A stretch of DNA of 64,000 nucleotides, from the NCBI GenBank assembly GCA_965249275.1, contig CBDFLQ010000005.1:195030-259029 (forward strand). The letters run 5' to 3'. Source of the stretch: Dehalococcoidia bacterium. GTDB taxonomy: Bacteria > Chloroflexota > Dehalococcoidia > Plut-88900. The position numbers were made by a program, and so were the translations under genes. Below the pieces are notes generated by a model, which was not told where the DNA came from, searched no databases, and saw nothing but the letters and a program-made list of their open reading frames with translations. Below are positions 2,043-56,009 of this stretch, one piece after another (position 1 is the first letter of the stretch; the number at the start of each line of letters is the position of its first letter).

Positions 2043-2165
2043 ATCCCCTCCGAATTGTTGCTCTATCTAGACTTCTGTTGCGCTCCCCGCGGTCGAACCC
2101 CGATTTTAACATAGCCATCCCGTCCCCCGATCCGACTAACGAAGTACGGTTATCCATGCCTTGAC

Positions 2166-4280: not shown

Positions 4281-4407
4281 GTGCGACCTGCAGAGTAGCC
4301 TCCAGTCCGTTTGGCAGTAGCAATACGCCGGAAGCCCGCAGCGAGGAACACTGCAATAGAAGCCCTCGCTCTGTTGGAACGCATTGAAGCGACCTTATCC
4401 TAGAACA

Positions 4408-5538: not shown

Positions 5539-5634
5539 AGCTTTTTATCCCGTTCATTGAGAGTCCTTGGCCACTTCAGGCCATTATACTTAGCCGCCCT
5601 ACTAAGGCGAAGGCCAAACCCCCTCTGGTCATCC

Positions 5635-5672
5635 CCCACCCCAGGGCGACCGGCCGGTCGCCCTGGGGTGGG
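5635..5672. repeat. 38-bp perfect palindrome in a divergent intergenic region
   Basis: CCCACCCCAGGGCGACCGG|CCGGTCGCCCTGGGGTGGG, two exact 19-nt arms. Preceded by GTCATCCC, the same 5' octamer as the REP-like repeat. Confidence 0.9.
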
Positions 5673-5754
5673 CCCCCTGTTTCGTTCTCAATACCGGAAC
5701 GTTAGAATAGGTGCCGCGCCTATAGAGCGCCGCCACAAGTAACCGGAGGTCTCC

Positions 5755-6273: not shown

Positions 6274-6274
6274 C

Positions 6275-7045: not shown

Positions 7046-7089
7046 ACCCCCCTCGCCCCGAGCCCGCCGAAGACCCCACCCTGCTCTGT

Positions 7090-7126
7090 GTCATCCCGAG
7101 GCCCCGCGAGGGATCTAGGACTTGCC
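7090..7126 (+). repeat. 37-bp dispersed REP-like repeat, copy 2
   Basis: GTCATCCCGAGGCCCCGCGAGGGATCTAGGACTTGCC, between convergent genes. Confidence 0.9.
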
Positions 7127-7175
7127 CACTCACTTACCTCCTACTCACGTCGTCCAACCCCCCGTGGTCACACCC

Positions 7176-8084: not shown

Positions 8085-8100
8085 TCCTTTTTCTACGCTC

Positions 8101-8583
8101 CTACAGCCCGGTATCCGAGTCCAGCAAAACGTCCCGAAGCAGCTCTACTGCAGCCGCCGACGCCATCTCCCGGTTTTCAGCCCGATCGCCGGAAAACCGC
8201 CGTTCTACACACACGTCTATCTCATTCCCCACAACCGCTACGAAGAATAGCCCGACCGGCTTGGCCCTTGTACCGCCCGTCGGGCCCATCACCCCCGTCG
8301 CCGAGACCGCCAGGTCAGACCCTATTAGCCGTCGGGCCCCTTTGGCCATTTCCCGCGCCGTCACCTCCGAAACCGACCCCTCACGAATCATTACTTCTTT
8401 GGGAATGCCCAGCACATTCTCCTTTATATCGTTGGCATACGCCAAAACTCCCCCAACAAAGAACCTCGAGCTCCCCGGCACGCTGGTCAGCTTGGCCGCT
8501 ATCAACCCCGAGGTACATGCCTCCGCCACGGACACCGTAAGCCCTCGCTCCTTCAGAATTCCTGCAACTTCCTCTTCGATCAA
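8101..8583 (-). CDS. CinA C-terminal domain / nicotinamide-nucleotide amidohydrolase (PncC-like)
   Basis: 160-aa ORF with AEACTSGLIAAKLTSVPGSSRFFVGGVLAYAN, matching the ESCTGG...GG.V.Y.N pattern of CinA-C. Confidence 0.8.
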   Translation of the reverse strand: MIEEEVAGILKERGLTVSVAEACTSGLIAAKLTSVPGSSRFFVGGVLAYANDIKENVLGIPKEVMIREGSVSEVTAREMAKGARRLIGSDLAVSATGVMGPTGGTRAKPVGLFFVAVVGNEIDVCVERRFSGDRAENREMASAAAVELLRDVLLDSDTGL

Positions 8584-8689
8584 ATCTCCCCCTTCAATGC
8601 CCGTTTTTTATTACCTCCCCAATTATAGCCCCCAAACCTCCTCCTTCCCCTTTCCGGCACCCCGTCCCGGAGCCGTAATCGATCCCCAC

Positions 8690-9301
8690 CTAAGACCCCA
8701 CCTCCACACTGATATCCGTAGGCGTGCCGCTATTCGTCGCATTCTGGTCCTGCGGACACGCCGACACGCACACCCAGCAGTCCATCTCCACCCTGAGCAG
8801 CACGTAGTCCCCTGCCTTAGTCTCCGGCGCCGCTATGTCCATCCTACCGTCTATAAACACGCGAAAGTTGGTGAACAGGTTAACCGGCTGCGGTATCTCC
8901 ACCCCTGGCACCCCGATGGCCTCCATACACTTCCGAAGGTTCTCCTCACAGCTGGCATGCCACCCCTCCACCCCCAATTCCCGGTACCTGCTGGGATTGC
9001 ACGACGCGTACAGCAAGTCGTGAATTCCGGGGCTATGGTCCTCGACAAGCGTGAGGATAGGTCGGCGCTCCTGGGTATAGAACGCCTCTTCCTCCTTCGG
9101 AAACAGCCTGGAAATGGAGGGCCTCGTATGTTCGGCGCTCAGGTACTCTTTCACGTTCTCCACGTTGAAGGCAAACAGGTCCACGGCCTGCCCGCCATGC
9201 AGATCTATCACCTTAACCAGCTCACCCTTACTTGCCCGAAACGCCTTCCCTTCCCGAGCCGGTACATGGTAATCCAATCGTTTCTGCCTTAGCTCCGTCA
9301 T
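8690..9301 (-). CDS. DUF1989 (urea-carboxylase-associated) family protein
   Basis: Start moved to the ATG at 9301, which is preceded by GGAGGTG. YHVPAREGKAFRASKGELVKVIDLHGGQAVD and C-terminal ACPQD, as in the fragment at 2-277. Confidence 0.75.
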   Translation of the reverse strand: MTELRQKRLDYHVPAREGKAFRASKGELVKVIDLHGGQAVDLFAFNVENVKEYLSAEHTRPSISRLFPKEEEAFYTQERRPILTLVEDHSPGIHDLLYASCNPSRYRELGVEGWHASCEENLRKCMEAIGVPGVEIPQPVNLFTNFRVFIDGRMDIAAPETKAGDYVLLRVEMDCWVCVSACPQDQNATNSGTPTDISVEVGS

Positions 9302-9455
9302 CTGCTCACCTCCGCTCTCGATTCGCTTGTTTCCCATGACAGTTTAATCCGTCCAAGCTCCCGCATACACCCCCACCCCCTCAACCATCCCGATAACCTC
9401 ACCAACACTTTTCAGACATCCTTTGCGACCTACCCAGCATCCCACTCTTGACTGT

Positions 9456-9492
9456 GTCATCCCGAGGCCCCGCGAGGGATCTAGGACTTGCC
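9456..9492 (+). repeat. 37-bp dispersed REP-like repeat, copy 3
   Basis: Exact GTCATCCCGAGGCCCCGCGAGGGATCTAGGACTTGCC. Confidence 0.9.
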
Positions 9493-9581
9493 CAACCACA
9501 CCCTTCCCCCTTTACGCCTTCCCATTCCTCGTGGTTGCCCTACCCCCTCCCCACTGCCCCCCAATCAAAGGATCACCCTAT

Positions 9582-9622
9582 GTGACACCAACCCCTTGAC
9601 TCCATCAGACCATACGTACTAA
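9582..9622 (+). promoter_or_regulatory. conserved promoter-like module, copy D (degenerate -10)
   Basis: GTGACACCAACCCCTTGACTCCATCAGACCATACGTACTAA aligns with the modules at 36891 (+), 41172 (-) and 56009 (-). TTGACT at 9596-9601. Confidence 0.45.
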
Positions 9623-10043
9623 CCTCCTCTTGGTCCCCGTCTGCACAGCCGACTCACTACCGCCGACATCCTCACCTCTTCTTTCCGAACGGTTTTCCCT
9701 CCGACCCAACAACCCCATACACCTAATCCTGAAGGACCTTGCCCAATTCTTAAACTCCAGCAGCCATTCCAACACCCCTCTCCCCGAGAATTTCTCCTTC
9801 CCTGGCCTATGATTCAAATTCCCTCCGACAAGCAGACAATCAGAATTCGTGCCTGCTGCCCGCAAACAATCAAACACAAAGCTGATTCCTTTGATTGCCC
9901 CCTTCGACTTTGATAGTAGTATGTCAACTTGCCCCCACGCCTTGCCTCCCACCCCCTATCCGCCTAAACTATCCCAGCATCTCTGGTATAACATTGTCTA
10001 ATACACACAATAACCAATTGCATGGATTCACACCCTGGGGAGA

Positions 10044-10277
10044 ATGGACATAGAAGGAGACATAGCAGTAGCCGACCACTGGGACGCCGGTCACATGGGC
10101 TGCGGTGAGGTTGTCATCATGCTCAGGATGCGATTTCAACCCCTCGCTCCTGGCCAGGTCTTCAAGCTCACGACCCAGGACCTGGGCGCCCACGAAGACA
10201 TCCCCGCCTGGTGCCGGCTCACGAGTCGCCGCCTCCTCAAAGCCGACCACCCCCACTACTGGATCGAGCAGAAATAG
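10044..10277 (+). CDS. TusA/SirA-like small sulfur-carrier-fold protein
   Basis: 77-aa ORF. DAGHMGCGEVVIMLRMRF...PGQVFKLTTQDLGAHEDIPAWCRLT parallels the TusA layout (Cys-loop, then ...D..A..DIP.WC). The Cys sits in a CG context rather than CP. Confidence 0.6.
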   Translation: MDIEGDIAVADHWDAGHMGCGEVVIMLRMRFQPLAPGQVFKLTTQDLGAHEDIPAWCRLTSRRLLKADHPHYWIEQK

Positions 10278-10295
10278 ACCTTGGAAGGAGTCGAC

Positions 10296-10658
10296 ATGTC
10301 CGGAAAGTTCTGCGTCAGCCTCACCCATGCCAAGGACAACACCGACAAAGCCACCGTGGCCTTCGTAATAGCCAACGCCGCCTTGGGTTCGGAGAAGGAG
10401 ACCATGGTCTTCCTCAGCACCGAGGGAGTTCGTGTTGCCGAGAAGGGTTATGCCGACGACATCAACGAGGAAGGGTTCATGCCTCTCAAGGATCTGATGG
10501 ACAGTTTCGCCGCATTCGGTGGTGATATCTACGTCTGTGCCCCGTGCTTCAAGAAGCGCGGCCTCGACGAGAACAACCTCGTTGACGGGGCCACGATAGT
10601 AGGAGGCGCCAAGCTCGTAGAGTTCCTCTCCGATAACAGCCCTTCCGTCTCTTACTGA
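10296..10658 (+). CDS. DsrE/DsrF-like family protein
   Basis: ATG at 10296 is preceded by GGAAGGAG. KATVAFVIANAALGSEKETMVFLSTEGV...IYVCAPCFKKRGL is typical of DsrE/F-like sulfur-relay folds. Confidence 0.65.
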   Translation: MSGKFCVSLTHAKDNTDKATVAFVIANAALGSEKETMVFLSTEGVRVAEKGYADDINEEGFMPLKDLMDSFAAFGGDIYVCAPCFKKRGLDENNLVDGATIVGGAKLVEFLSDNSPSVSY

Positions 10659-10679
10659 CCTCCCGCACCCGAGCCTCTC

Positions 10680-12200
10680 ATGGACCCTATCGAACGTCAC
10701 GTATACCAGCCCGACGTCAGCTTCGACGGCGGTGATCTCGACTGCGGCGGCGGTCTGCTCCTGCTCATCCGCCGTCACATCGACCCCATGGAGCGCGGCG
10801 GCCTCCTGGAGATCCTCTCCACCGACTCCACCGTCGAGGTCGAGCTGCCAGCCTGGTGCCGCATGACCAAGAACGAGATGGTCTCCTGGACCAAGAGGAA
10901 TGGTCAGCGCAGCTTCCTGGTCTGCAAGGGTCTTATGGAAGAGCGTCGGCCCACGGCCACCCTCCCACCCCCCGCCTCCATAGGCGAACAGCTGCGCGTG
11001 AAGGTCACCATCCCCGACTCCCTCCCCCCACCCTCCCCTGCTCCCGAAATCACGCCTTTGTCGGTCATGGGTATCGGGAGTTGGCCCCGGCCCCGCTGGA
11101 TGCTCCAGGCAGTCCACGACAGGCTGGAAGGGCGCCTCAATGAAGAGGACTTCCAAGCCACCGCTAACGATGCCGCTCGACTCTCCATCGACACCCAACT
11201 TCGCGCCGGTGTCGACGTGGTCACAGACGGCGAGCAGCGCCGCGACAGCTATGCCAGCTTCGTAGGCGGCCTTCTCGACAACTGCCAGCTCATCCCACTA
11301 ACCGATCTCACCGCTATGGTCGACGACCCAGACAAGTTCGAGAAGGAGCTGCGCGCCCTCGATGTGCCCGCTGGCGACGTACGCCACCCTGTCGTCTACG
11401 GCAAGCTCGGCCGAAGCAAACCCCTCGCACTCCACGAGCTTGAATTCGCCGCCCAATGCACCGACAGGCCCATCAAGGTCGCCCTCCCCGGCCCTTACCT
11501 CCTCACCCGTACCATGTGGCTCGACTGCCTCACCGACCTCCCCTACGAGACCCGTGAAGACCTAGCCCAAGACGTCGTCCGGGTCCTCCGCGAAGAGCTA
11601 CACTTCCTTCTTGCATCCGGTGCAGCCCTAGTCCAGTTCGACGAGCCCGTTCTCACTGAGGTCGTATTCGGCGCCCCAAGCGGCAACCGCACCTTCATGT
11701 GCGGTGCCCTCAGCGAAAAACTGGCCCCTGCCGCAGAGCTTGATTTTGCCGCAGGCCTCCTCAACGACGTCGTTACCGGCCTCCCACCCGACCGCCTTGG
11801 CCTCCATATCTGCCGCGGCAACTGGACTCGCGACGAGTCTGCCGCCCTCTCCGGCGACTACCGCCCCCTCCTCGACCTTCTCGAACAAGTCCAGGTAGGG
11901 ACCCTATTCCTGGAGCTCTCAACCCCCCGCGCCGGTGAAGCTGCAGTTCTCCGTTCTCTCCCCGACGACAAGCGCATCGCCATCGGCGTCGTCAACCAGA
12001 AGCTCGACGCTGTGGAGAGCCCCGAGGACATCAGCCGGAACATAGACCTCGGCCTCAACCTCTTCGGAAGTGAACGCCTTCTCCTCACCCCTGACTGCGG
12101 CTTCGCAACCTTCGCCGACAACCCCGTCGCCTCCGCCACCATCGCCGAGGCCAAGCTCCGGGCCATAACACAATCCCGAGACCTGGTACCTGCATCATGA
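10680..12200 (+). CDS. fusion protein: N-terminal TusA-like domain plus cobalamin-independent methionine-synthase-like (MetE C-terminal, Meth_synt_2) domain
   Basis: 506-aa ORF. N-terminus DLDCGGGLLLLIRRHI...LEILSTD...ELPAWCRMT. The C-terminal ~370 aa have GSWPRPRW, DVVTDGEQRRDSY, FDEPVL, the zinc motif LHICRGN and a second zinc Cys in TPDCGF. Confidence 0.7.
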   Translation: MDPIERHVYQPDVSFDGGDLDCGGGLLLLIRRHIDPMERGGLLEILSTDSTVEVELPAWCRMTKNEMVSWTKRNGQRSFLVCKGLMEERRPTATLPPPASIGEQLRVKVTIPDSLPPPSPAPEITPLSVMGIGSWPRPRWMLQAVHDRLEGRLNEEDFQATANDAARLSIDTQLRAGVDVVTDGEQRRDSYASFVGGLLDNCQLIPLTDLTAMVDDPDKFEKELRALDVPAGDVRHPVVYGKLGRSKPLALHELEFAAQCTDRPIKVALPGPYLLTRTMWLDCLTDLPYETREDLAQDVVRVLREELHFLLASGAALVQFDEPVLTEVVFGAPSGNRTFMCGALSEKLAPAAELDFAAGLLNDVVTGLPPDRLGLHICRGNWTRDESAALSGDYRPLLDLLEQVQVGTLFLELSTPRAGEAAVLRSLPDDKRIAIGVVNQKLDAVESPEDISRNIDLGLNLFGSERLLLTPDCGFATFADNPVASATIAEAKLRAITQSRDLVPAS

Positions 12201-12880
12201 CCGGCCCGGCTGGCCCTCCACCCACCGACGACGAGGCCATCCAGGTCCAGGGCTACCAGCGGTTCCGTGCCCCGGAAGGCCATTCCGGCCAAGGCATCCT
12301 GATCAACACCTCCCGCGGCAGCATATTCAGTCTTTTTCACCCCACCGAGACCATGGACGCCGCCGTCCTTTGGGTCTGGGGCGCCAGCGGGGGCGTCACC
12401 GGCCCCGCCGACAGCATTTACGTCCGCCTCGCCGAGCGCCTCGCCAGTGAAGGCATAGCCTCCCTCAGGCTCGACTACCGTTTACCCAATGACCTCTACG
12501 AATGCGTACTCGACACCCTCGCCGGGACAACCCTGCTGCTGGGTGTTGGCTTCAAGCGATTGGCCTTGGTTGGCCACTCATTCGGAGGGGCTGTGGTCAT
12601 AGCCGCCGCCCCCTACAATGACAAGATAGTAGCCGTAGTGGGTCTGTCCAGCCAGAGCGCAGGTGCGCAACGTGTTTCGGAAGTCGCCCCCAGGCCCTTG
12701 CTCCTGGTCCACGGCGCCGACGACGCCATAATCCCCGTCCGAGCCTCCCAGTTCATCTATGACCTCGCCGATCAACCCAAGGAACTCCGCTACTTCCAGG
12801 GCGCGGGCCACGGCCTGAACGAGTGCCGTGAAGAGCTGGACGAACTCCTTCACGGCTGGCTTAGGGATAAGCTGGCTTAG
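12197..12880 (+). CDS. alpha/beta hydrolase (dienelactone-hydrolase-like)
   Basis: 227-aa ORF with nucleophile elbow GHSFGG, and later HGADD and GAGH. The ATGA overlap with the upstream stop suggests translational coupling. Confidence 0.7.
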   Translation: MTGPAGPPPTDDEAIQVQGYQRFRAPEGHSGQGILINTSRGSIFSLFHPTETMDAAVLWVWGASGGVTGPADSIYVRLAERLASEGIASLRLDYRLPNDLYECVLDTLAGTTLLLGVGFKRLALVGHSFGGAVVIAAAPYNDKIVAVVGLSSQSAGAQRVSEVAPRPLLLVHGADDAIIPVRASQFIYDLADQPKELRYFQGAGHGLNECREELDELLHGWLRDKLA

Positions 12881-12890
12881 GGACTAGCAG

Positions 12891-13304
12891 ATGAAGCTAA
12901 AGTACGCTGTCGTCTATGAACAAACGCCCAACAACTTCTGCGCCTACGCTCCTGACCTGCCCGGTTGCGTCAGTACGGGCAAGACTTGGGACGAAGTCCG
13001 AGAGATGATGCGGGAGGCAATCGGATTCCATTTAGAGGGAATGCTGGAACATGGCGAATCCGTCCCGGAACCGCGAATGTCCATTGAAGACGCTAAGGCC
13101 TATCACAACGACCCTCTCTCCAAGCAAGAGCAAAAGGCCCTTGCAGCCTACGGCGCTGATGCTCCCAACCTGTCAACCACTTTCGACATGGCAGAGATTG
13201 AGGTAAACCTCGCCCCTACCCCCATGTCATCCCGAGGCCCCGCGAGGGATCTAGGACTTGCCCCTTCACATCCCTCTCGACCATCCCCTCCCTACCCCTC
13301 CTGA
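12891..13304 (+). CDS. HicB-like (UPF0150) antitoxin-fold protein, orphan; C-terminal tail encoded by the REP-like repeat
   Basis: N-terminus MKLKYAVVYEQTPNNFCAYAPDLPGCVSTGKTWDEVREMMREAIGFHLEGMLEHGESVPEP is a typical HicB N-domain. The last ~27 codons read through the repeat at 13226-13262 (MSSRGPARDLGLA). Confidence 0.65.
   Translation: MKLKYAVVYEQTPNNFCAYAPDLPGCVSTGKTWDEVREMMREAIGFHLEGMLEHGESVPEPRMSIEDAKAYHNDPLSKQEQKALAAYGADAPNLSTTFDMAEIEVNLAPTPMSSRGPARDLGLAPSHPSRPSPPYPS
13226..13262 (+). repeat. 37-bp dispersed REP-like repeat, copy 4
   Basis: Exact GTCATCCCGAGGCCCCGCGAGGGATCTAGGACTTGCC. Confidence 0.9.
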
Positions 13305-14539
13305 TTACACACATCCAGCGCCGTAGCTGCCATCACCTTGGCGCAGGTGACCATGTCGCTGATGCGGACGTAGTGGTCCGGTTCATCTTCCCGTGCGTCC
13401 CAATCGCCCCCGGGTCCGTAAAGCACGCACGGAATGCCTGCCTTCCACATGTGGGTGGTGTCGTTCCCCGAGTAGGAGTTCGGGGTCTTGCTCCCGACGT
13501 AGGCCAACTCGCCCCCCGTAACCGCCCTGAACCCCCGAGCCACTGCCTTCACGATCTCCTCGTCCGTGGGCATGTTCATCGGCTCCATCACCGTGCGAAG
13601 AACTCTGTAATCTGCCGGGGGCGGCATCTCGATCTCATAGTCGAACTCGGGGTCCGACGCTTTGACTCCATCCAACGCCCGCCTCACCTCTTCCAAAACA
13701 CCCGCAGAGGTCTGCCCAGGGACCATGCGCCCGTCAACTAGCGCCGTGCAGAAGTCCGGCACGAAGTTCGGGCCGTTAATAACATGGTTCCTCCCCTGTC
13801 CCCCGATAACCGCCCCAACGTGCAGCCGAGGCAAGGATGGCAGAGCCGCAAACGGTGTGTGCGAAAGCTCAAGCCCATTTATCGCCTCAATGGCCTTGGC
13901 CATCTTCTGAATGGCGTTGACCCCGCTCTCTTTCTGGCTTATATGCCGAGACTCGCCCAACACGTGTACCGCCATCTCCAGCCATCCCGCGTGGATCGTG
14001 AGTACGGTGTCCGCATCGTTCGGCTCCGCCACTATCGCCATGTCGGGCCGGTACCCGTGCTCCAGGGCGTACTCCGTCCCCACCCCTCCCTGCAGCTCCC
14101 CGACAACGCACGCCACCTGTAGGTCACCTTTAAGTGACGCCTTGGCCCGGCGCACCGCCTCAGCCGCCGCCACTATCGACGCAACACCGCCCTTCATGTT
14201 GTATATCCCCGCCCCATACAGCCGGTCACCTTCCACCGAGGACTTCCACGGGTCACGCTTCCAACCCATTGAAAGCGGGTCCTGGTCTATGTGCCCGTTC
14301 AGCATCAGGGTTTTCCCACCTCCCGTGCCCCGCAGCGTAGCAATGACCTGGTATCGGCCCGGATCGACCTCCTGAAGGTCGACCTCATATCCCCATCGCC
14401 GGAAGTTCGATGCCAGGAACAGCGCTATCTGAGATTCCTCGGTCTTGAAGCTGGGTATGTCGATTAGCTTCTTCGCAAGCCCGACAACCCAGTCTTCCTT
14501 TACCCGATTCGTTACTCTGTCTAAAGTTGTTGCAGCCAT
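13292..14539 (-). CDS. M20-family metallopeptidase / deacylase (ArgE/DapE/ACY1-like), paralog 1
   Basis: 415-aa ORF with LMLNGHIDQDP, GAGIYNMKGG, VVGELQGGVGT and SYSGNDTTHMWKAGIPCVLYGPG. Confidence 0.85.
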   Translation of the reverse strand: MAATTLDRVTNRVKEDWVVGLAKKLIDIPSFKTEESQIALFLASNFRRWGYEVDLQEVDPGRYQVIATLRGTGGGKTLMLNGHIDQDPLSMGWKRDPWKSSVEGDRLYGAGIYNMKGGVASIVAAAEAVRRAKASLKGDLQVACVVGELQGGVGTEYALEHGYRPDMAIVAEPNDADTVLTIHAGWLEMAVHVLGESRHISQKESGVNAIQKMAKAIEAINGLELSHTPFAALPSLPRLHVGAVIGGQGRNHVINGPNFVPDFCTALVDGRMVPGQTSAGVLEEVRRALDGVKASDPEFDYEIEMPPPADYRVLRTVMEPMNMPTDEEIVKAVARGFRAVTGGELAYVGSKTPNSYSGNDTTHMWKAGIPCVLYGPGGDWDAREDEPDHYVRISDMVTCAKVMAATALDVCNQEG

Positions 14540-14554
14540 TCTCGACCTCCCCGG

Positions 14555-15799
14555 CTAGGCCGGCAGGTTACAGACTTCCAGTGCCGTTAGGGCGTGAGTC
14601 TTTGCACACTCGACCATTTCGCTCACGTTGACGAAGGTATCGGCCTCTCCACCGAGCGACCTGTCGCCCCCCGGCCCGTTCAGGACACACGGAATGCCCG
14701 CCTTCCAAAGGTGGCACGTGTCGTTGCCCGCGTAGGACCGAGGCAGTATCGCTCCGACATTCTCGGGTGGCGCACCCATGTGCCCTTCAATGGCCCGTGA
14801 CACCGCCCCGACTATGTACTCGTCCTTCGGGATGTCCACCGGGTCCATGGTCACGGCTACTCCCTTGTATTTCGCAGGCGGTGGTATCTCCAGCTCCCAT
14901 TTCAGTTCCGGGTCCTCGGCGCTCAGGCCGTTCAGGACCTTCCTCACGTCCTCCTCTACGGTCTCGGCGGTCTGTCCGGGGACTATGCGCACGTCCCAGA
15001 TGGAGGTGCAGAAGTCGCTCACGTAGTTGGGGCCCTTCAGGTCGTGGTCCCGGCCCCGCCCCCCGATAATTGCCCCACAGTTTATCCTCGGCAGCCCCGG
15101 CAGTTCGGGGTGCGGCGTATGCCTCAGTTCGACTTTGTCCACCGCATCGATCACCTTCATCATCTTCCCAATCGCGTCGACCGCCTCTTCCCTCACCGTG
15201 ATGTGCTTGGAGTACCCCAGGACGTTGATCGCCATCCCGATAACTCCGGCATGGATAGTCATGATAGTCTTCGACCCGAAGGGCTCGGCTACAATGGCCA
15301 TGTCCGCCGTCACCCCGCTTTCGAGAGCGTGGACCGTCCCCACCCCTCCCTGCAGCTCTCCCACCACGCACGCCACTACTATGTCTCCCTTAAGCTCCAC
15401 CTTAGACTTACGAATAGCCTCCGCCGCCGATATCATCGAAGCGACTCCACCCTTCATGTTGAAGGCTCCACCCCCGTACAGCCGGTCCCCTTCCCAGCTG
15501 GGCGTCCACGGGTTCCGTTTCCAGCCCATCGCCAGCGGGTCGATGTCTATGTGCCCGTTCAACATCAGGCTCTTCCCCCCACCCGACCCCTTAAGCGTAG
15601 CTATGGTCTGATACCGCCCCGGCTCCACTTCCTGTAGATCGACCTCATATCCCCTCCGCCGGAAGTACGTGGCGAGATACTTGGCTACCTTCTGCTCTTC
15701 CGTCTTGAAGCTCGGTATGCGGAGGATCCTGCTGCACAGGTCCACCACCTCCCGATCCTTGATCTTTCCCAGAACCCTATCCTTCACTGCTGCATCCAT
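14555..15799 (-). CDS. M20-family metallopeptidase / deacylase, paralog 2
   Basis: 414-aa ORF, collinear with 13292-14539 (LMLNGHIDIDP, NMKGGVAS, VVGELQGGVGT). Confidence 0.85.
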   Translation of the reverse strand: MDAAVKDRVLGKIKDREVVDLCSRILRIPSFKTEEQKVAKYLATYFRRRGYEVDLQEVEPGRYQTIATLKGSGGGKSLMLNGHIDIDPLAMGWKRNPWTPSWEGDRLYGGGAFNMKGGVASMISAAEAIRKSKVELKGDIVVACVVGELQGGVGTVHALESGVTADMAIVAEPFGSKTIMTIHAGVIGMAINVLGYSKHITVREEAVDAIGKMMKVIDAVDKVELRHTPHPELPGLPRINCGAIIGGRGRDHDLKGPNYVSDFCTSIWDVRIVPGQTAETVEEDVRKVLNGLSAEDPELKWELEIPPPAKYKGVAVTMDPVDIPKDEYIVGAVSRAIEGHMGAPPENVGAILPRSYAGNDTCHLWKAGIPCVLNGPGGDRSLGGEADTFVNVSEMVECAKTHALTALEVCNLPA

Positions 15800-15842
15800 C
15801 GGTTTCTCCGTAAGCTATTGGGCTGGCAGCCTCACTCACCCG

Positions 15843-16529
15843 TTATTCTTCTACCTTTGTGACCGGCTTTGACAACTTTTCCTTCAACGGATTTGTTGGC
15901 CTGACGGGATACAAAGAGTCTAGGCTTTCCAATTCCGAGAGCACCTTCACCAAAGCACGACGCGTGGTAGGCCTGCAACCCTGTATCGCCTTAATCAGTT
16001 CCCGAACGGTTTTGTCGCTAGTCTCCTTCTTATTTTGTGCGAAGTCGTTTTGCGCATAGTTGATGGAAAACTTATCCATGCTGGTCAGCGACCCGAATTT
16101 GGGACGCCACCAAGTGGGACACAAATTCAGAAGGTCGACTTCTTCCCTAACCGTAATCACCACCACGTCAACGCCTCGCTTGCGTAGAGTATCCAATTTC
16201 CGGCATTTCTCTTCGCTGGGCGGACTGCTGACAACCACTTCGATGATTCTGAGCGGCTTGACTTCGTCGTCGCCGTAGAGGATGAGATCAGGCACGATGC
16301 CTCCCACACTGTCCCACTCCGGGTCTGGAACCTTGACACTCCCAACTCCGGCCCGCAGGTCGTGCGACAGCTCCCCGTCCGGTTCAAGTCTCGCCCGAAT
16401 CTCCTCTCCCCTATCTAAGTCAGGGCGCGTCAACTCGTCGTAGAGCAGAGCTACAGCCCGTTCGTGCAGAGCACTGACAGGCCAAGCCTGCGTTCCGACA
16501 TTCCTGGCCATGTCCCCGTTCTCGCTCAT
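15843..16529 (-). CDS. hypothetical protein with possible PD-(D/E)xK (CoiA-like) nuclease core; lower-GC insert in the M20 array
   Basis: Start placed at MSENGDM (16529) to avoid overlapping the upstream gene. Segment GIVPDLILYGDDEVKPLRIIEVVVSSPPSEEKCRKLDTLRKRGVDVVVI resembles a D...(I/V)E(V)x.S nuclease core. Visibly less GC-rich than its neighbours. Confidence 0.4.
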   Translation of the reverse strand: MSENGDMARNVGTQAWPVSALHERAVALLYDELTRPDLDRGEEIRARLEPDGELSHDLRAGVGSVKVPDPEWDSVGGIVPDLILYGDDEVKPLRIIEVVVSSPPSEEKCRKLDTLRKRGVDVVVITVREEVDLLNLCPTWWRPKFGSLTSMDKFSINYAQNDFAQNKKETSDKTVRELIKAIQGCRPTTRRALVKVLSELESLDSLYPVRPTNPLKEKLSKPVTKVEE

Positions 16530-16546
16530 TGGGATACCCCCCTCCC

Positions 16547-17797
16547 CTACTTCTCCTGGTTGCACCAGTCCATCGCCGCCAGGGCATACGTCTTCGCCAG
16601 CTGCACCATGCTCGGCACTATGACGTAGGAGTCGGGCTCACCCTTCTGGTCCCGGCCGTTCTCGGCGCCCATCAGGCACACTGGAATACCCGCCTCCCAA
16701 ATGTGGCAGCTGTCGTTGCCCGCATAGGATTGGGTCAGTATCGCCCCTATCTTGTCCGGCGCCCGACCCGAAACCTTACGGTAGGCCTTCTCCAGGTTCT
16801 GCACTATCACGTTGTCTTTGGGCACGTCCATCGGGTTCATGAACACCGTCATCACCTTGTACTCCGGCGGCACCGGCGTCACGATTTCGTACTCGAAGGT
16901 CGGGTCCTCTTCCTTGATCTTGCTCAGTGCCCGGTCAAGGTCTGCCTTGACCGTCACGTGCGACTGCCCAGGCACGATCCTCGCATCGACTATCACCGTG
17001 CAGTAGTCACAGGTGAAGTTCGGCCCTTTCAGGTCGTGGTTCCTCCCCCTCCCCCCGATTATCGTCCCAGCGATAATCCGTGGCAGATCGGGCAGGTCGG
17101 GCCTGTGCTCGTAGGTGAATTCTACGTTCTTGATTGCCGGTATGGCCTTTGTCATCATCTCCAGGGCGTCGACGGCCAGATGAGAGCGGCTCACGTGCTG
17201 CGACTGCCCGACGGTGCTGATAGCCAGCTCCACGACTCCTGCGTGAGTCGTCATTATGTTGTCTCCGTCGCCCGTGGGCTCCGCGACATACGCTCCGTCA
17301 GTTCTCAGTCCTTGGTTCAAGGCGTAGACCGTCCCCACCCCTCCCTGTAGCTCCCCGACAACGCACGCCACGACAAGGTCGCCCTTCATCGGGGCCTTGG
17401 CCTTCCGAATAGCCTCGGCAGCGGTGATGATCGCCGTCACGCCGCCCTTCATGTTGTTGATCCCAGCACCGTACAGCCGGTCCCCTTCCCAACTGGGAGT
17501 GAACGGCTCCCGCACCCAGCCCATCGCCAGCGGGTCGATGTCTATGTGCCCGTTCAGCATCAGGCTCTTGCCCCCACCCGACCCCTTCAGCGTCGCTATC
17601 GTCTGATACCGACCCGGCTCCACTTCCTGCAAATCTACCTCATACCCTCTGCGACGGAAGAACCCGGCCAGGAACCTTGCAACTTTCTGCTCTTCCGTCT
17701 TGAAGCTAGGCATGGAGATCAGGTCGCTGGCCAGCTTGACTGTCTGCTCGGTCTTGATCTGACGAAGGACGCGTTCCTCGACCGCTTGGTCAACCAT
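16547..17797 (-). CDS. M20-family metallopeptidase / deacylase, paralog 3
   Basis: Start moved to the ATG at 17797, preceded by GGGAGGT. Collinear with the other two paralogs (LMLNGHIDIDP, NMKGGVTA, VVGELQGGVGT). Confidence 0.85.
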   Translation of the reverse strand: MVDQAVEERVLRQIKTEQTVKLASDLISMPSFKTEEQKVARFLAGFFRRRGYEVDLQEVEPGRYQTIATLKGSGGGKSLMLNGHIDIDPLAMGWVREPFTPSWEGDRLYGAGINNMKGGVTAIITAAEAIRKAKAPMKGDLVVACVVGELQGGVGTVYALNQGLRTDGAYVAEPTGDGDNIMTTHAGVVELAISTVGQSQHVSRSHLAVDALEMMTKAIPAIKNVEFTYEHRPDLPDLPRIIAGTIIGGRGRNHDLKGPNFTCDYCTVIVDARIVPGQSHVTVKADLDRALSKIKEEDPTFEYEIVTPVPPEYKVMTVFMNPMDVPKDNVIVQNLEKAYRKVSGRAPDKIGAILTQSYAGNDSCHIWEAGIPVCLMGAENGRDQKGEPDSYVIVPSMVQLAKTYALAAMDWCNQEK

Positions 17798-17931
17798 TCT
17801 TACCTCCCGAGACACATGGGTTCTTTAGGAAGAAGGACTGTTTGCCCTTCTCAAGGACGAGGCGAGTATATTATCAGCCCCGACCACAAACAAGCCGAAA
17901 CGCCACTCCACCCCCGTAGGTGCACCCCCTA

Positions 17932-19589
17932 GGAGCCTGTCTCACAAGTGGGGTGGGGTGTGGCAAGAGTGAAGGGCTAGATGGGGTGTCATTTGAGCAA
18001 TGATCGGTCACGACGACTCATGCCGGGTGGCCGATGATTGAGTTGCGCACCAGCGATGGGATGAGATTGCGGCCCCATATGCGGGTTGTCCGGCCGTGCC
18101 ATACCCGCCACAGGGTGCGCAGATTGAAGGCCGAGGCCAACAGGCCCCACTCGGCGGCCACGTTGTTGAGGCCCCGCAGCAGGAACCTACGCGCCGCCTG
18201 TTGCTCTTTGATGATCCCGAACACCGGCTCTACCAGCCCCTTCCTGCGACGGTACAACTCTCTGGCTTCATCGCTGCCCATCCAGGACCGATGACGACGC
18301 AAGGCTGTGTCGTGGGGCCCTATCTCAAGCCCTCGCCCATGTCGGCCGTCCCTCGTACACACCCCGAAGACCGGGCACCCTCGGCAGATGGCCCCCGAGG
18401 CCCGGTAGAGCCTCATCGGCATCCCACGGGTGCGCTTGATTCGGGTGAAGCGTAGTCGTTGTCCTTGCGGACAGATGTAGCTGTCGGTATCCTCATCGTA
18501 GGCGAATCGGTCCTTGTGATAGGGGCGGCCCAGTGCCCGACGCTGTGCCTCAGGCATCACAACTTTCTGCTCTCTGCGCCCACACTGCTGCAGATTGCTC
18601 CCTGAGTGATAGCCCGCATCGGCCAGCGTCGTCTCAGACCTGAGGCCGGTGGTCTCCTCCGCCCTCTGAAGCATTGGAACGAGTTGGGAATGGTCGTCGG
18701 GATCATCGGCTACCTCTACTGCAGTGATCAACATGCCCTTCCCGCCTGTGTCGGTCTTCGTCGGCGATACCATCGCCTGTGCGTTGTAGCAGGGCGCTAT
18801 CCCCCGGCGAGTCCTCATCAGACGTGCGTCTTTATCCGTGAGGTTTATCTGTTTGATCTCACTGCGCTCCGAGAGTTCGTCCATAGCTCGGCGCACCTTC
18901 TCTCTCAGCGCCGTCTTCTCGGTCAACTCATCAGGCAGATGGACGGGTGCGGCATCCTCCCCCGTCTCGTTCTCAGCCTCCAGTTCCTTCAGCGACTGCT
19001 CCACACGCCTCAGCAGACGCTCCAATCCTTCTCCATCCAGGCTCCTGTCTCCCGTCGCATTCGCACCCACCTTCGTGCCGTCCACTGCCTGCAGCGTCAG
19101 GTCGATAAGGTCCATCCCGAGCGCCGTTTGCACTGTGCGCTTCAGCAGTTTACGCATCGACTGGCGATTGCTCTTGTAAAACCTCCACAGCGTGTTGTGA
19201 TCTGGACGCTGCCATCCCGTCAACCATAGATACGGTATCTGGTCACGGCAGGCCCCCTCCAGCTTGCGGCTCGACCTTACCCCCGTCATGAATCCGTACA
19301 GCCACACCCCCAACATTGCCCTGGGATGGTACGCCGGCGCTCCCGTCCAGCTTCCGTCAATGTCTACTCCCATCTCTGCCCAGTCCTCCCGTCCCAGTGC
19401 ATCGACGAACTCCGCCACGAACCGCACAGGATGATCTTCCGGCACCATCTCATCCAGGGTCGGTGGCAGCATCCACACCTGCTCTCGTCCCATCGGTCTC
19501 AGTGGCATCTCCATAACCTCCACTCAGAGCTTCTCCCCTCCTAGTTTACCCTCATGCATAAACCTCCACTCCCTTTTGAGACAGGCTCC
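17932..19589 (-). mobile_element. IS1182-family insertion sequence (~1.66 kb) with imperfect ~25-bp terminal inverted repeats
   Basis: Left end GGAGCCTGTCTCACAAGTGGGGTGG. The right end reverse-complemented reads GGAGCCTGTCTCAAAAGGGAGTGG. CTA sits immediately outside both ends (17929-17931, 19590-19592). Single transposase ORF inside. Confidence 0.85.
18018..19523 (-). CDS. IS1182-family (IS5-like DDE) transposase
   Basis: 501-aa ORF. N-terminus LPPTLDEMVPEDHPVRFVAEFVDAL (transposase DUF772-type) and C-terminal DDE region with ADAGYHS and VEPVFGIIKE. Confidence 0.85.
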   Translation of the reverse strand: MEVMEMPLRPMGREQVWMLPPTLDEMVPEDHPVRFVAEFVDALGREDWAEMGVDIDGSWTGAPAYHPRAMLGVWLYGFMTGVRSSRKLEGACRDQIPYLWLTGWQRPDHNTLWRFYKSNRQSMRKLLKRTVQTALGMDLIDLTLQAVDGTKVGANATGDRSLDGEGLERLLRRVEQSLKELEAENETGEDAAPVHLPDELTEKTALREKVRRAMDELSERSEIKQINLTDKDARLMRTRRGIAPCYNAQAMVSPTKTDTGGKGMLITAVEVADDPDDHSQLVPMLQRAEETTGLRSETTLADAGYHSGSNLQQCGRREQKVVMPEAQRRALGRPYHKDRFAYDEDTDSYICPQGQRLRFTRIKRTRGMPMRLYRASGAICRGCPVFGVCTRDGRHGRGLEIGPHDTALRRHRSWMGSDEARELYRRRKGLVEPVFGIIKEQQAARRFLLRGLNNVAAEWGLLASAFNLRTLWRVWHGRTTRIWGRNLIPSLVRNSIIGHPA

Positions 19590-19961
19590 CTAGCGGTTGC
19601 TCGTCCCTTCAGCTCCATCCAACTCCACGGCCTGCCGGATTATCCCTCCAAGGGCCGGTGCCTCCAGGTCCTCCACACTCCTGAGCTTCACGTGCCTCAT
19701 CCGCTTCCCCGTGCCCTCGATCAAACCGTCGGGGTTCGGGAGCAAGGCTCCTTGCCACAGCCCCAGGGTAACGTATTTGTCCGCCTGTGAAGCTATGTAG
19801 AAGATCCTAACCTTCTTTTCAAAGAACGGGTTGCCCCACTTAATCGACTCCCGTAAGTCGAGCCCAGCCTCCAGGAACATCCGACGTAGCTCTACTGCCA
19901 GAGGCCTCAGCCGCGTATCCACCTCAACCAACCAGTCGTCAAAACTCTTCTTAGACGGCAT
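19590..19961 (-). CDS. DUF1801 (YdhG-like) domain protein
   Basis: 123-aa ORF with ESIKWGNPFFEKK...YIASQADKYVTLGLWQG. The stop codon TAG (19590-19592) coincides with the IS flanking repeat. Confidence 0.6.
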   Translation of the reverse strand: MPSKKSFDDWLVEVDTRLRPLAVELRRMFLEAGLDLRESIKWGNPFFEKKVRIFYIASQADKYVTLGLWQGALLPNPDGLIEGTGKRMRHVKLRSVEDLEAPALGGIIRQAVELDGAEGTSNR

Positions 19962-19978
19962 AGTCGTATCCCTGTGCC

Positions 19979-20938
19979 CTATTTCGTGCCGGGAACCAGC
20001 GTGAGCAGGAACTGCAGCACCAGGTTGGCAGCGAGAAGCGAGGTTATTTCAGAAATATCGTAGGCGGGAGCCACCTCCACGATATCAAACCCAACCGCCC
20101 CGATACCCCTCAGGCTCTTGACCAGGGCCATCGCTTCCCGGCTGGTGAGCCCCGCCACCTCCGGGGTCCCGGTTCCCGGGGCGAAACCAGGGTCCACGCT
20201 GTCGATGTCGTAGGAGATGTGCACCGGACGACCCTTTGTGGCCGACCTTATCTTCTCGATAGTGGCATCGACACCCGTGTGCCAGAACTCCTCGCCCGTG
20301 ATCACGGTAATGCCCGCGGCCTTTACCTCCTCGACTATCCCCATTGAGGGCCGTCCCCGTATCCCCACCTGCACTGACGTCGCCGGGTCCATGATCCCCT
20401 CATCCGAGGCGATGCGGAACATGGAGCCGTGGTGTATAGGCATATCCTTGGGCGGCTCCCAGAAGTCGGGGTGTGCATCGAAATGGACGAGGGATATCTT
20501 CCCGTGCTTCTTGTACAGCGCCCTCAGAATAGGAAGAGAAACCGTGTGGTCTCCCCCGAGGCACACCGGGAAGACGTCCTGGGAGATGATATCCGTGACG
20601 ACAACCTCTATGCGCCTGACCGCCTCTTCAATGTACCCATAGGTGAGTTCGATATCTCCATAATCTACGATGCGGAGGCTCTTGAAGGGCTCGGTCAGCT
20701 CCGCCGCCTCCAGCCCGTGCTGCCCGACGTGCATGGACGCAGTACGTATACCCCTAGGCCCGAACCTCGCCCCCGAGCGAATGATGGTCCCCAAATCCAG
20801 CGGAAGCCCGACTATCGCCACGTCGGCTTTGGACAGGTCCCGGCTCCCGGGAATCTGCATAAAGGTGCTTGGGCTCCCGTATCGGGGCCCGTTTTGCCAC
20901 GCTTCAGGCATCAATCGATTTTCTTCAGTGTTACCCAT
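19979..20938 (-). CDS. agmatinase / guanidino-acid ureohydrolase (arginase family)
   Basis: 319-aa ORF with arginase-family Mn motifs LGGDHTVS, HFDAHPD and SYDIDSVDP. Confidence 0.85.
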   Translation of the reverse strand: MGNTEENRLMPEAWQNGPRYGSPSTFMQIPGSRDLSKADVAIVGLPLDLGTIIRSGARFGPRGIRTASMHVGQHGLEAAELTEPFKSLRIVDYGDIELTYGYIEEAVRRIEVVVTDIISQDVFPVCLGGDHTVSLPILRALYKKHGKISLVHFDAHPDFWEPPKDMPIHHGSMFRIASDEGIMDPATSVQVGIRGRPSMGIVEEVKAAGITVITGEEFWHTGVDATIEKIRSATKGRPVHISYDIDSVDPGFAPGTGTPEVAGLTSREAMALVKSLRGIGAVGFDIVEVAPAYDISEITSLLAANLVLQFLLTLVPGTK

Positions 20939-36865: not shown

Positions 36866-36890
36866 TCGGGCCGTAGGCTCGCCTCGGCGA

Positions 36891-36933
36891 GTGACATCTC
36901 CCCTTGACCCGATAAGAACATATGTTGTATATT
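36891..36933 (+). promoter_or_regulatory. conserved promoter module, copy C (TTGACC-18-TATATT)
   Basis: GTGACATCTCCCCTTGACCCGATAAGAACATATGTTGTATATT aligns, spacer included, with the modules upstream of the two large ncRNA candidates. Confidence 0.6.
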
Positions 36934-37021
36934 CCCACCCATGACCACCTCTCTCCAACTCACCTTTCGTCCTGCCCCTTCGGCCCCGCGAAAAACTTTC
37001 GCGAACCTTCTAGGCGTCATT

Positions 37022-37112
37022 CAATCAAAACAGCTACGAATTCAATCAACCTTCAATCAAGTTCAATCGACTTTCAATCAAGACCAATCATCCTCCAATC
37101 AATCGTCAATCA
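37022..37112 (+). repeat. array of eight direct (T)TCAATCA repeats at 10-11-bp spacing
   Basis: CAATCA (one CAATCG) starts at 37022, 37043, 37054, 37064, 37075, 37085, 37096 and 37107. The array sits between two convergent genes. Confidence 0.9.
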
Positions 37113-38484: not shown

Positions 38485-38561
38485 TGGTACCCCCAACGGG
38501 ATTCGAACCCGTGATCTCCGCCTTGAAAGGGCGGTGTCCTTGGCCGCTAGACGATGGGGGC
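38485..38561 (-). tRNA. tRNA-Glu (anticodon UUC), CCA encoded
   Basis: The minus strand reads GCCCCCATCGTCTAGCGGCCAAGGACACCGCCCTTTCAAGGCGGAGATCACGGGTTCGAATCCCGTTGGGGGTACCA. It folds as a cloverleaf with anticodon loop CTTTCAA and T-loop TTCGAAT. Confidence 0.95.
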
Positions 38562-40382: not shown

Positions 40383-40491
40383 CTCAGCATCTCCCTAGGC
40401 TAAGGAAAGAGGCTACAGTCTGACAATATCCGGTGGGGAAATCAAGGCAGTGTACTCGTTCGGTAGATTAGTGACACACTGGCCTTTTCTT

Positions 40492-41123
40492 CAGTTGTGG
40501 GGGTTCGGTTTCAGTTCTGTCTGTTAGGTTTTGGGTTGGCGATGAAAGACGCTTGCTGGATTCGGCTCCCTATCTTTAGATAATGCGGGCTAGGAGGCGT
40601 CCCGGGAACGTGGGGACGGGGCTCCGCCGCCGCCTAGACCTGGAAGTATGGTCGGACATACGGGTCCGTCATCCGTCATAGGCTCCAATGAAGGTTGGCT
40701 GCGCTGTCCGCCGTAGGCGGATGCAGGAAGGGGAAAGTCCAGGGTCAGTTCCCCTCGCAGGAGTACGGGGTATCCAGTTCGCCGCCTGTATCCAGGAGCC
40801 GGGAGTGGCGGACAGTCCAGTTTTATTTGAGGAAGCGGACGGAGAGCCGAGCGGGCCTCGGCTACGGGCCGCCCCGTTCCGCTCCATGGGACGAGAGCTC
40901 CGAAAGGAGCCATAGGGACAATTACGGTCCAGGGCGTCTTCCATCGCCTGGGGTCAGGGAAGGGGGCGCGGGGCCCGGTAAGAGGAGATGGCGGCGTTTG
41001 CTTGAGCCGCGGGCCCCGTGTATGGGCCGTTGGGATGGGCTTGGACGTTGAGTCCTCGTTGTGGGCCGGGTGGGCTTCCCTGGGTGTTGGTTTCCTCCTT
41101 AAGGTGGGTGTCGGGTCTAGACT
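40492..41123 (-). ncRNA. candidate large structured ncRNA (unclassified), copy A
   Basis: ~630 nt with no credible ORF. Homologous in blocks to 55306-55959. Consensus promoter at 41130-41172. Long-range helix 40538-40552 with 40934-40948, plus several conserved hairpins. Ends are approximate. Confidence 0.6.
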
Positions 41124-41129
41124 GGTCCA

Positions 41130-41172
41130 ATAATAGAACATGTGTCTTATGAAGTCAAGGGGGTGATGTCAC
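41130..41172 (-). promoter_or_regulatory. conserved promoter module, copy A (TTGACT-17-TATTAT)
   Basis: The minus strand reads GTGACATCACCCCCTTGACTTCATAAGACACATGTTCTATTAT. Confidence 0.7.
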
Positions 41173-41309
41173 CCCTCTATGTGAACGGGATCAGCTACTA
41201 TCCTCACCATGACACCATCTTATGTGTCACCAATCTTTGTGAATGCCTTGACAGATATGGACTAGTGTTTTATTCTGCGCCGCAGGATTTTTTCTAACAA
41301 GGTTAGCAC

Positions 41310-55245: not shown

Positions 55246-55284
55246 GGACACCGCCCCAGATTCCTCGCAGGGCATCGGAATGAC
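55246..55284 (-). repeat. divergent relative of the REP-like repeat
   Basis: The minus strand reads GTCATTCCGATGCCCTGCGAGGAATCTGGGGCGGTGTCC, with the same GTCAT..CCGA...CGAGGRATCT.GG frame as the 37-bp repeat. Confidence 0.5.
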
Positions 55285-55305
55285 AGGGGGAGGGGGTGGG
55301 TTATT

Positions 55306-55959
55306 CAGTTGTGTGGTTTCGGGTTCCGTTCTATTTGTTGGGGTGGTTGGCGATGGAAGACGCTGGCTGGACGCTGCCCCCGTTCCTGTGCTTCGGGTGC
55401 TCCGACGCCCTGGAGCAAGGCCGCCGGCCCGCTTTTGCCGCTGCTGCGGCCTGTGGCCCTGTATACGCTGGACGTGGGCAGGGACCATCAGGGCCACCAA
55501 GTCCGAGCCCGACTCCGGGGGGTTGGCTGCACCGCTATAGGGCGGCAAGGAGGCCCGTCCAGCGTCCGATGCCGGGCCTCTTGCAGGCGTAATGTGTCCA
55601 AGTTTGCCGGTGCGACCCGGAGCGCGTAGACCACCGGCTCCCGGCTTGATTAAGCGGACGGTGTACCGAGAGGGCCTCGGCGCCGGGCCTATCCGACCGC
55701 TATTCCGCTTGAAGGAGCGGCATCTCCGTTAGGAGCCTCACATGGAACGATAGCGAACCAGGGCGTCTTTCCATCGCCTGGGGGGTAGGGAAGGGTGCAC
55801 GGGACCCGTGGGGATGAGGAGATGGCGGCGTTTGCTTGAGCCGAGGCCGGGCAATGCCGACCTACGGGATGGGCTTGGACGTTGAGTCCTCGGGTGGGTC
55901 GGGTGGGCTTCCCTGGGTTTTTGGTTCCTCCTTGAGATAGTTAGGTTGGTGTTCGAACG
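55306..55959 (-). ncRNA. candidate large structured ncRNA (unclassified), copy B
   Basis: ~650 nt with no credible ORF. Shares end blocks and internal islands with copy A. Promoter at 55966-56009. Long-range helix 55349-55363 with 55763-55778. Ends are approximate. Confidence 0.6.
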
Positions 55960-55965
55960 GTGGGG

Positions 55966-56009
55966 ATAATAGCACGGATGTTCATAACGGGTCAAGGGGT
56001 TGATGTCAC
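55966..56009 (-). promoter_or_regulatory. conserved promoter module, copy B (TTGACC-18-TATTAT)
   Basis: The minus strand reads GTGACATCAACCCCTTGACCCGTTATGAACATCCGTGCTATTAT. Confidence 0.7.

Follow-up and report, generated by a model that had tools for sequence, protein, structure and literature searches.

A candidate family of mobile, heavily base-paired non-coding elements with their own promoter in one group of Dehalococcoidia

We analyzed a 64,000-nucleotide stretch of a Dehalococcoidia genome (contig CBDFLQ010000005.1, positions 195,030 to 259,029; hereafter the window), in which an earlier model's reading of the letters alone (the sequence-only reading) had picked out two related loci, copy A and copy B, as a large RNA candidate. 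Copy B occupies window positions 55301-56009 on the minus strand and is a paralogue of copy A, with which it shares a promoter, an AAGGAGG motif, a long closing helix and hairpins whose stems have been swapped. As the sequence-only reading had placed it, it sits between tenA, upstream, and FAS1_DH/MaoC hydratase genes, downstream. Both loci are members of a family, not described before, of elements of ~0.7 kb that are non-coding and heavily base-paired, have their own strong promoter, occur in one group of Dehalococcoidia and have probably spread by IS481-like cut-and-paste transposition; the family is thereby a candidate for a new class of mobile large RNA genes, as opposed to an ordinary leader or a dead gene. 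The features of copy B, listed in promoter direction, and the extent of copy A are as follows.

56004-56009, minus strand: GTGACA motif, just upstream of the -35 hexamer; an alignment of 41 copies shows it to be the inner portion of the left terminal inverted repeat (TIR) of the family
55966-55995, minus strand: predicted sigma-70 type promoter, TTGACC, an 18-nt spacer with TG, TATTAT; score 10/12
55927-55933, minus strand: AAGGAGG, in nearly every copy (two have AAAGGAG), ~25 nt past the predicted start
55780-55926, minus strand: constant 5' domain, outer helix AGGGAAG/CUUCCCU around nested helices and three hairpins (from the fold and helices 2-9)
55866-55888, minus strand: 23-nt block GACUCAACGUCCAAGCCCAUCCC with hairpin GGAC-UCAAC-GUCC
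55844-55863, minus strand: variable hairpin Hb, AGGUCGG-loop-CCGGCCU, with one U.G pair
55816-55842, minus strand: hairpin with a UCAAGCAAAC loop, then CGCCAUCUCCUC
55762-55778, minus strand: long closing helix, 5' strand GGCGAUGGAAAGACGCC (helix 10, 97.5% of cells paired)
55364-55761, minus strand: central domain with several helices, variable across the family, in which it represents type B among 11 interior types
55349-55363, minus strand: long closing helix, 3' strand GCGUCUUCCAUCGCC
55301-55348, minus strand: 3' tail, C/A-rich, G/U-poor and unstructured, ending in CACAACUGAAUAA, with no intrinsic terminator after it
40451-41193, minus strand: copy A, a complete element (right TIR 40451-40477, left TIR 41167-41193, promoter 41158 to 41130)

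Copies A (about 40480-41170) and B (55306-56009) align end to end on the minus strand with a mean column identity of 78%; long identical blocks lie in the 5' third and close to the 3' end, on either side of a divergent middle part, and the claim that the copies are collinear at both ends is borne out. The window contains exactly two occurrences of each of the two longest shared blocks, GAGATGGCGGCGTTTGCTTGAGCC (55819-55842 and 40985-41008) and GGGCTTGGACGTTGAGTCCTCG (55871-55892 and 41037-41058), where shuffled sequence is expected to contain neither. The 15-bp long-range helix is likewise present, with one bulged base (55349-55363 with 55762-55778), and copy B does carry AGGCCGG-loop-CCGACCT (55844-55863) at the position where copy A has GGCCC-loop-GGGCC. 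One description needs amending: the motif placed about 30 nt from the predicted 5' end is indeed followed by no start codon, but copy B has AAGGAGGAACC rather than AAGGAGGAAAC, and the distance from the predicted start is ~25 nt.

The copies number far more than the two first noticed. An 18-mer taken from the conserved 5' region of the element, used to scan bacterial and archaeal genomes at one per species, returned 46 loci (cited below by L numbers). Thirty-nine of these align to the element, and all lie in six Dehalococcoidia chromosomes assembled from metagenomes: 15 in OZ240215.1, 13 in OZ244800.1, 6 in OY764147.1 and 5 together in the remaining three genomes. A metagenome scan with an independent two-block pattern returned 35 loci that included only 6 true members, all on LXNJ01 contigs, and viral contigs scanned with the RNA 18-mer and a TIR pattern gave chance matches only, none of them similar to the element. 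As these three scans describe the family, its members are numerous within a genome but phylogenetically narrow in distribution. In Rfam 15, the whole window has no match at the gathering score, copies A and B searched at E up to 10 gave only chance matches (E 0.95-7), and 16 loci covering other interior types have no match inside the element; no covariance model for OLE, ROOL, GOLLD, HEARO, raiA, RNase P, tmRNA, group I/II introns, riboswitches or small ribozymes matched it. We found no description of the element in the literature.

Across the family, the 5' end consists of an upstream block, TGRTCCCGTTCACATAGAGRGGTGACAT, and a promoter made up of CCCCTTGAC, 17-18 nt and TAYTATWNT. Its -35 and -10 hexamers are conserved in all copies of the 41-copy alignment (TTGACT, 17 nt, TATTAT on the minus strand in copy A), and the long closing helix is retained in 41 of the 41 copies examined. 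A C/A-rich leader of ~25 nt has AAGGAGG at its end and leads into the constant 5' domain of ~150 nt, which comprises GACUCAACGUCCAAGCCCAUCCC, the hairpin with a copy-specific stem and CGCCAUCUCCUC. The first 18 nt of GACUCAACGUCCAAGCCCAUCCC are constant by construction because they were the search key; its trailing 5 nt are identical in all copies retrieved. Hb has at least five unrelated stem sequences. The long helix pairs GGCGAUGGAAGACGCC with GGCGUCUUCCAUCGCC or, in another subgroup, ...GGUCC with GGACC..., and encloses a central domain of 326-510 nt that falls into 11 sequence types with short core motifs in common. The tail of ~55 nt (A 0.43, C 0.40, G 0.10, U 0.07) takes up zero to six hairpins of the form UCCGCC-UNN-GGNGGA, resembling repetitive extragenic palindromes (REP-like), which are inserted at one point in many copies, and the element closes with a final block, GGTGTGTCACTAAYCTACCGAACGAGTACA.

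Such REP-like palindromes (GTCATTCCGA...GGAATC, GGGGCGGTGTCCCC, UCCGCC-UNN-GGNGGA and CGCCTCGGCG) are abundant between the genes of these genomes, at window 55246-55300 (minus strand) and at many other loci, and they enter the element at three preferred points, one in the tail, one in a 5'-domain loop and one where the left TIR is split into its two halves. In the OY764147.1 copies (L011, L016, L017, L035, L036 and L045), the 5'-domain module from GGACUCAACG through the hairpins to CGCCAUCUCCU is tandemly duplicated, adding ~130 nt and a second CUCCU motif.

For the secondary structure, we aligned 22 copies representing four interior types, from which RNAalifold predicted 123 pairs in 28 helices. 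Standard pairs fill 86.6% of cells (82.4% when shuffled), 122 cells are changed on both sides (62 when shuffled) and the covariation score is 0.170 (0.116 when shuffled); 0 of 500 shuffles matched the observed value for any of these three measures, in a control that makes no correction for the relatedness of the sequences. When partners were slid by 1-3 columns, covariation scores fell to 0.035-0.075. Compensatory changes, which occur in the closing helix, the hairpin with a variable stem and a number of helices of the core, are therefore commoner than in shuffled and slid controls, in support of the sequence-only reading on this point. We regard this as good but not final evidence, drawn from aligned sequences, for a conserved structure. 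RNAalifold also paired the AGGAG of the leader with the CUCCU of the 5' domain, both of them essentially invariant; since CUCCU is complementary to AAGGAGG, the two may form a pseudoknot. The sequence-only reading had suggested that the AAGGAGG motif could be an anti-SD mimic or a structural element; with neither segment varying, the pairs between them offer no covariation.

The long helix has a second conceivable origin, as the repeats of an invertible DNA switch (inverton): at many loci a 16-bp perfect inverted repeat, whose sequence is common to all, surrounds a segment of 330-510 bp. The promoter, however, lies outside that segment, and when 41 interiors were compared all against all, none matched another in the opposite orientation. 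We rejected this explanation, to which we give next to no credence.

Copies have no reading frame in common, whether inside one subgroup or across subgroups; substitutions are distributed flatly by position modulo 3 (71/78/66, 68/82/63 and 92/92/80) with no 3-base periodicity, and the majority of indels are not multiples of three. The proteins encoded downstream of 36 copies fall into no Pfam family more than twice, coming instead from unrelated metabolic and housekeeping genes, and the downstream genes differ even between copy-B orthologues. These data support the conclusion that the element is non-coding, and neither the leader of one gene nor a decayed protein gene. Decay of a coding sequence would accommodate the long chance open reading frames (183 amino acids in copy A, for example), but the lack of a common frame, the flat substitution pattern, the indel lengths and the absence of any similarity to the IS481-like transposase gene described below all contradict it; a coding origin was rejected and has virtually no likelihood in our judgment. 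The sequence-only reading had argued that two unlinked paralogues point to a functional RNA family rather than a leader. Part of this stands, as the copies are non-coding, conserved, paired and equipped with their own promoter and as the 36 downstream proteins share no family, but the many copies are those of a mobile element. It had also named, as the outcome that would undo its proposal, that both loci are decayed remnants of a protein gene or a mobile element: a mobile element they are, but their copies are conserved rather than decayed and share no frame.

Mobility is evident from the ends of the element. Imperfect TIRs of ~27 bp with TG...CA ends, reading TGATCCCGTTCACATAGAG...GTGACA, are both present in 13 copies, including copy A; left and right repeats match at 18 of 27 positions (shuffle p 0 in 2000). 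Direct repeats of at least 4 nt flank 11 of the 13 two-ended copies, against an average of 1.3 for permuted flank pairings (0 of 727 reach 11), and the ends are best fitted by TG...CA termini with a 5-bp target duplication. Miniature inverted-repeat transposable elements (MITEs) are usually under about 600 bp, a size that this element exceeds at 695-1034 bp from TIR to TIR. Two copies in one genome, L024 and L027, are 97.5% identical and occupy different sites with different duplications; transposition has therefore been fairly recent. The family is a multicopy non-autonomous mobile element bounded by TIRs and target duplications, with no transposase gene inside. Copy A is a complete element with degenerate target duplications. 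In copy B, a search allowing up to 4 errors found no TIR; the right repeat is missing, and all that remains of the left one is its inner GTGACA.

Two further loci bear on the history of insertions. At L006:6160-6198 (minus strand), a 39-nt sequence, TGATCCCGTTCACATAGAGGGGTGACATCACCCCCTTG, that also forms the left end of copy A is joined at the -35 box to a groES-groEL promoter that also has a CIRCE operator; this looks like a solo left end after deletion between two -35 boxes. L020 and L031 represent one insertion site, with like flanks, duplication and downstream tRNA gene and with the element directly upstream of the tRNA promoter, and their central domains are of different types (E and A), which suggests recombination or gene conversion between paralogues.

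The neighbourhoods contain no consistent transposase or reverse transcriptase and no IscB or TnpB gene nearby. A repeat search among the retrieved loci identified an IS481-like insertion sequence of 1056 bp, present in three copies in OZ240215.1 (L046:25-1080, L041:5844-6899 and L042:3388-4437). Its 320-amino-acid protein has integrase-core (rve) domains and finds its best match in the NCBIfam IS481 transposase model (E 3e-54, with a score below the model's curated cut-off). It has 28-bp TIRs and 5-bp duplications (ATTCC, GGAAT), and it inserts inside REP-like GTCATTCC...GGAATGAC units. Its TIR matches the right repeat of the RNA element at 20 of 28 positions (shuffle p 0.0005); outside the TIRs, the RNA element has no similarity to this insertion sequence or its transposase gene. 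The resemblance of the TIRs, together with the 5-bp duplications, therefore makes an IS481-type transposase the likely mobilizer of the family, as judged by sequence comparison, and the 1056-bp element is probably not the true partner but related to it.

The site of insertion is unusually uniform. Past the duplication on the right flank, TTGAC (at least four of five positions) stands at offset 5 in 10 of 17 distinct flanks, usually with a host -10 hexamer 16-18 nt after it. The fixed offset places the element just upstream of host promoters in one orientation, with its right end towards the promoter. We wondered whether the element might therefore be a mobile promoter with a long cis-acting leader, which inserts upstream of host promoters and adds to or modulates the transcription of what follows. 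The nearest concept in the literature is that of repeated "putative mobile promoter" sequences upstream of unrelated prokaryotic genes (PMC3575422). Insertion exactly 5 bp upstream of -35 boxes in a fixed orientation would suit such a role, as would the co-direction of about two thirds of the nearest downstream genes and the lack of a detected terminator in copies A and B. But the downstream host promoters are intact, and the genes thus retain start sites of their own; about one third of the genes are convergent with the element, and the genes have no common functional theme. Moreover, orthologues of copy B conserve the element but have different genes downstream of it, and the C-rich, G-poor tail resembles a Rho entry site, which would insulate a downstream gene. 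We find this explanation rather improbable.

Conservation was best assessed for copy B, whose orthologue, L046, lies beside the same tenA and CN-hydrolase genes (90% identical as DNA). Third codon positions are 69.5% identical in tenA and 81.5% in the CN-hydrolase gene, and intergenic DNA on both sides of the element is about 53% identical. The element itself retains 94.0% identity in its central domain, 97.2% in its tail, 86.9% in its 5' domain and 85.7% in its promoter; the divergence of the 5' domain is in large part due to the stems of the variable hairpin, which differ between copy B and L046. A break in synteny just downstream of L046 reflects an IS481-like insertion there. Since neither copy B nor L046 has terminal repeats, the constraint is not for transposition; comparison of these sequences indicates that the element is under purifying selection even after losing its repeats. 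Between the close relatives OZ240215.1 and OZ244800.1 the picture is mixed, with elements 92-98% and flanks 82-98% identical. The comparison of copy A with L040 yields no neutral rate because the adjoining leucine-rich repeat gene aligns over about 320 nt only.

On balance, we lean towards the view that this is a family of non-autonomous transposons of 0.7-1.0 kb that carry a stand-alone structured RNA gene, and that copy B is an immobilized member. The promoter strand would give rise to a stand-alone, trans-acting structured RNA of ~650 nt, whose 3' end would probably be set by Rho-dependent termination at the C-rich, G-poor tail or by trimming back to the REP-like hairpins inserted there. 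One partner, the same for every copy, would be bound by the constant 5' domain, and each paralogue would owe its specificity to its variable core.

Several observations weigh against this view. Transcription is predicted from the promoter alone, no intrinsic terminator was found on the promoter strand of copy A or copy B, and both the partner of the 5' domain and the targets of the core are purely inferred. Classic GNRA and UNCG tetraloops are rare in the element, and the RNA is C-rich, which is atypical of structured RNAs. The orthologous pair L004/L014 is 93.2% identical, below the 95-98% of its flanks. Most seriously, in helices predicted on both strands, G.U and A.C each account for 37 cells, and the closing helix contains both; such equality is unusual for a true one-strand RNA. 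The pair 55847/55860 in copy B is, as had been claimed, G-U when read on the minus strand and C-A on the plus strand, but these counts deprive it of value as evidence for a strand. No usable G.U/A.C asymmetry emerged from five tests, which drew on the closing helix, on helices common to both strands, and on symmetric hairpins, symmetric minimum-free-energy helices and symmetric helices of the alignment; the three noisier of them were dominated by the C- and A-rich composition. Folding discriminates between the strands in some copies and not in others: relative to dinucleotide shuffles, the promoter and opposite strands score z -1.92 and +0.73 in copy B and -4.59 and +0.87 in copy A, but in L006 both fold better than shuffles (-5.15 and -4.39). 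We consider the missing wobble asymmetry the main weakness of an RNA interpretation.

The symmetry also counts in favor of purely selfish DNA, a long MITE-like IS481-type element whose palindromes would act at the DNA level or have no role and whose transcript would be incidental. TIRs, target duplications, many copies, recent transposition, the free insertion of REP-like hairpins and the one orthologous pair that evolves faster than its flanks all sit comfortably with this explanation. It is harder to reconcile with the 92-94% identity of the TIR-less copy B and its orthologue, where neutral sites are 70-82% identical and flanking intergenic DNA is unalignable, or with compensatory changes above controls and a near-consensus promoter in every copy; and transposases require only the ends of an element, not a 650-nt interior. 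We judge selfish DNA unlikely, though a prospect to be taken seriously.

Alternatively, the opposite, G-rich plus strand could be the functional one, as RNA or as single-stranded DNA. G.U pairs are no commoner than A.C on the promoter strand, one conserved hairpin has GNRA loops in the plus-strand reading but not in the other, and the absolute folding energy of the plus strand is lower. Against this, neither window copy folds better than shuffles on that strand (z +0.73 and +0.87), and TIRs with target duplications indicate a double-stranded DDE mechanism rather than a single-stranded one. We assign the strand from the conserved promoter on the minus strand and the absence of any conserved promoter facing the opposite way, and give the plus strand a very slim chance.

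The stand-alone RNA gene that we favor could also be tied more closely to transposition. In one version, the RNA would be more than cargo, namely a working part of the life cycle of a new kind of RNA-assisted, promoter-homing DDE transposon, or would control the IS481-type transposase, and the 11 cores would be specificity modules. Insertion exactly 5 bp upstream of -35 boxes would be accounted for if, at promoters, the RNA tethered the transposition complex to sigma or to RNA polymerase. We allow this proposal a slim chance.

The element combines features of two known kinds, the non-autonomous transposon and the large ornate RNA, and there is a real chance that it amounts to more than their combination. 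With MITEs, the Correia elements of Neisseria and mobile insertion cassettes it shares TIRs, a target duplication, the lack of a transposase gene and many intergenic copies, and with promoter-carrying MITEs and Correia elements also an internal promoter and a foldable (here predicted) transcript. It is, however, five to eight times longer (0.7-1.0 kb) than Correia elements, and in contrast to these and to MITEs its whole 650-nt interior is conserved across species with covariation, its TIR-less copies are still conserved and it inserts at a fixed distance from -35 boxes. Its TG(T)...CA termini, 27-28 bp TIRs with the inner motif (G/T)TGACA and 5-bp duplications recall the IS481 family, from which it differs in having no transposase gene and no similarity outside the TIRs; the IS481-like insertion sequence found here, for its part, targets REP-like GTCATTCC units and not promoters.

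Among large RNAs, HEARO, the omega-RNA of IscB, is similarly a large structured non-coding RNA of a transposable element with a high copy number in some genomes. The Rfam HEARO model gave no match at E up to 10, however, no IscB or TnpB gene lies near, TIRs and target duplications point to a DDE mechanism and not to the IS200/IS605 type, and there is no evident guide segment. The element resembles OLE, ROOL and GOLLD in its length of about 600-800 nt, its many helices, its interspersed highly conserved single-stranded stretches and its own promoter, and ROOL and GOLLD also in its association with mobile DNA. Unlike all three, it matches no covariance model, has 13-15 or more diverged paralogues per genome, joins a constant 5' domain to a variable core, is C-rich and is confined to one Dehalococcoidia clade.

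Bacteria have very few known RNAs that are both large and structured, and most of these (OLE, ROOL, GOLLD) are without a known function. The present family would add one of unusual design, in which a constant 5' domain is combined with a variable core and each genome has a dozen paralogues or more, and its clear means of spread makes it tractable for comparative analysis. A bacterial transposon homing to a fixed site upstream of promoters would also represent a "safe-haven" strategy, which is known mainly in eukaryotic retroelements. A functional RNA would mean that an entire layer of RNA genes has gone unannotated in Dehalococcoidia genomes; should the RNA have no function, a different explanation is required for why TIR-less copies are so strongly conserved.

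Further observations concern the surroundings of the element. RNase P RNA and tRNA genes lie 0.1-2 kb downstream of some copies (L016:5056-5402, plus strand; window 38488-38561, minus strand; L020:6144-6217, plus strand). At window 36870-37110 (plus strand), the same promoter module (GAGTGACATCTCCCCTTGACC, 17 nt, TATATT) follows a REP-like hairpin and drives another non-coding stretch, C-rich and distinct from the element, with about nine degenerate TTCAATCAA units in tandem at its end; it has a homologue at L029:2212-2458 with about 72% identity and looks like a separate candidate small RNA or sponge built of repeated motifs. A third GTGACA...CCCCTTGAC promoter module, at window 9582-9640 (plus strand), is followed by several hundred C-rich bases. 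Over window positions 1-20000, the GC skew of the plus strand is strongly negative (-0.14 to -0.38 per 2-kb window), and it is close to zero by the window's second half.

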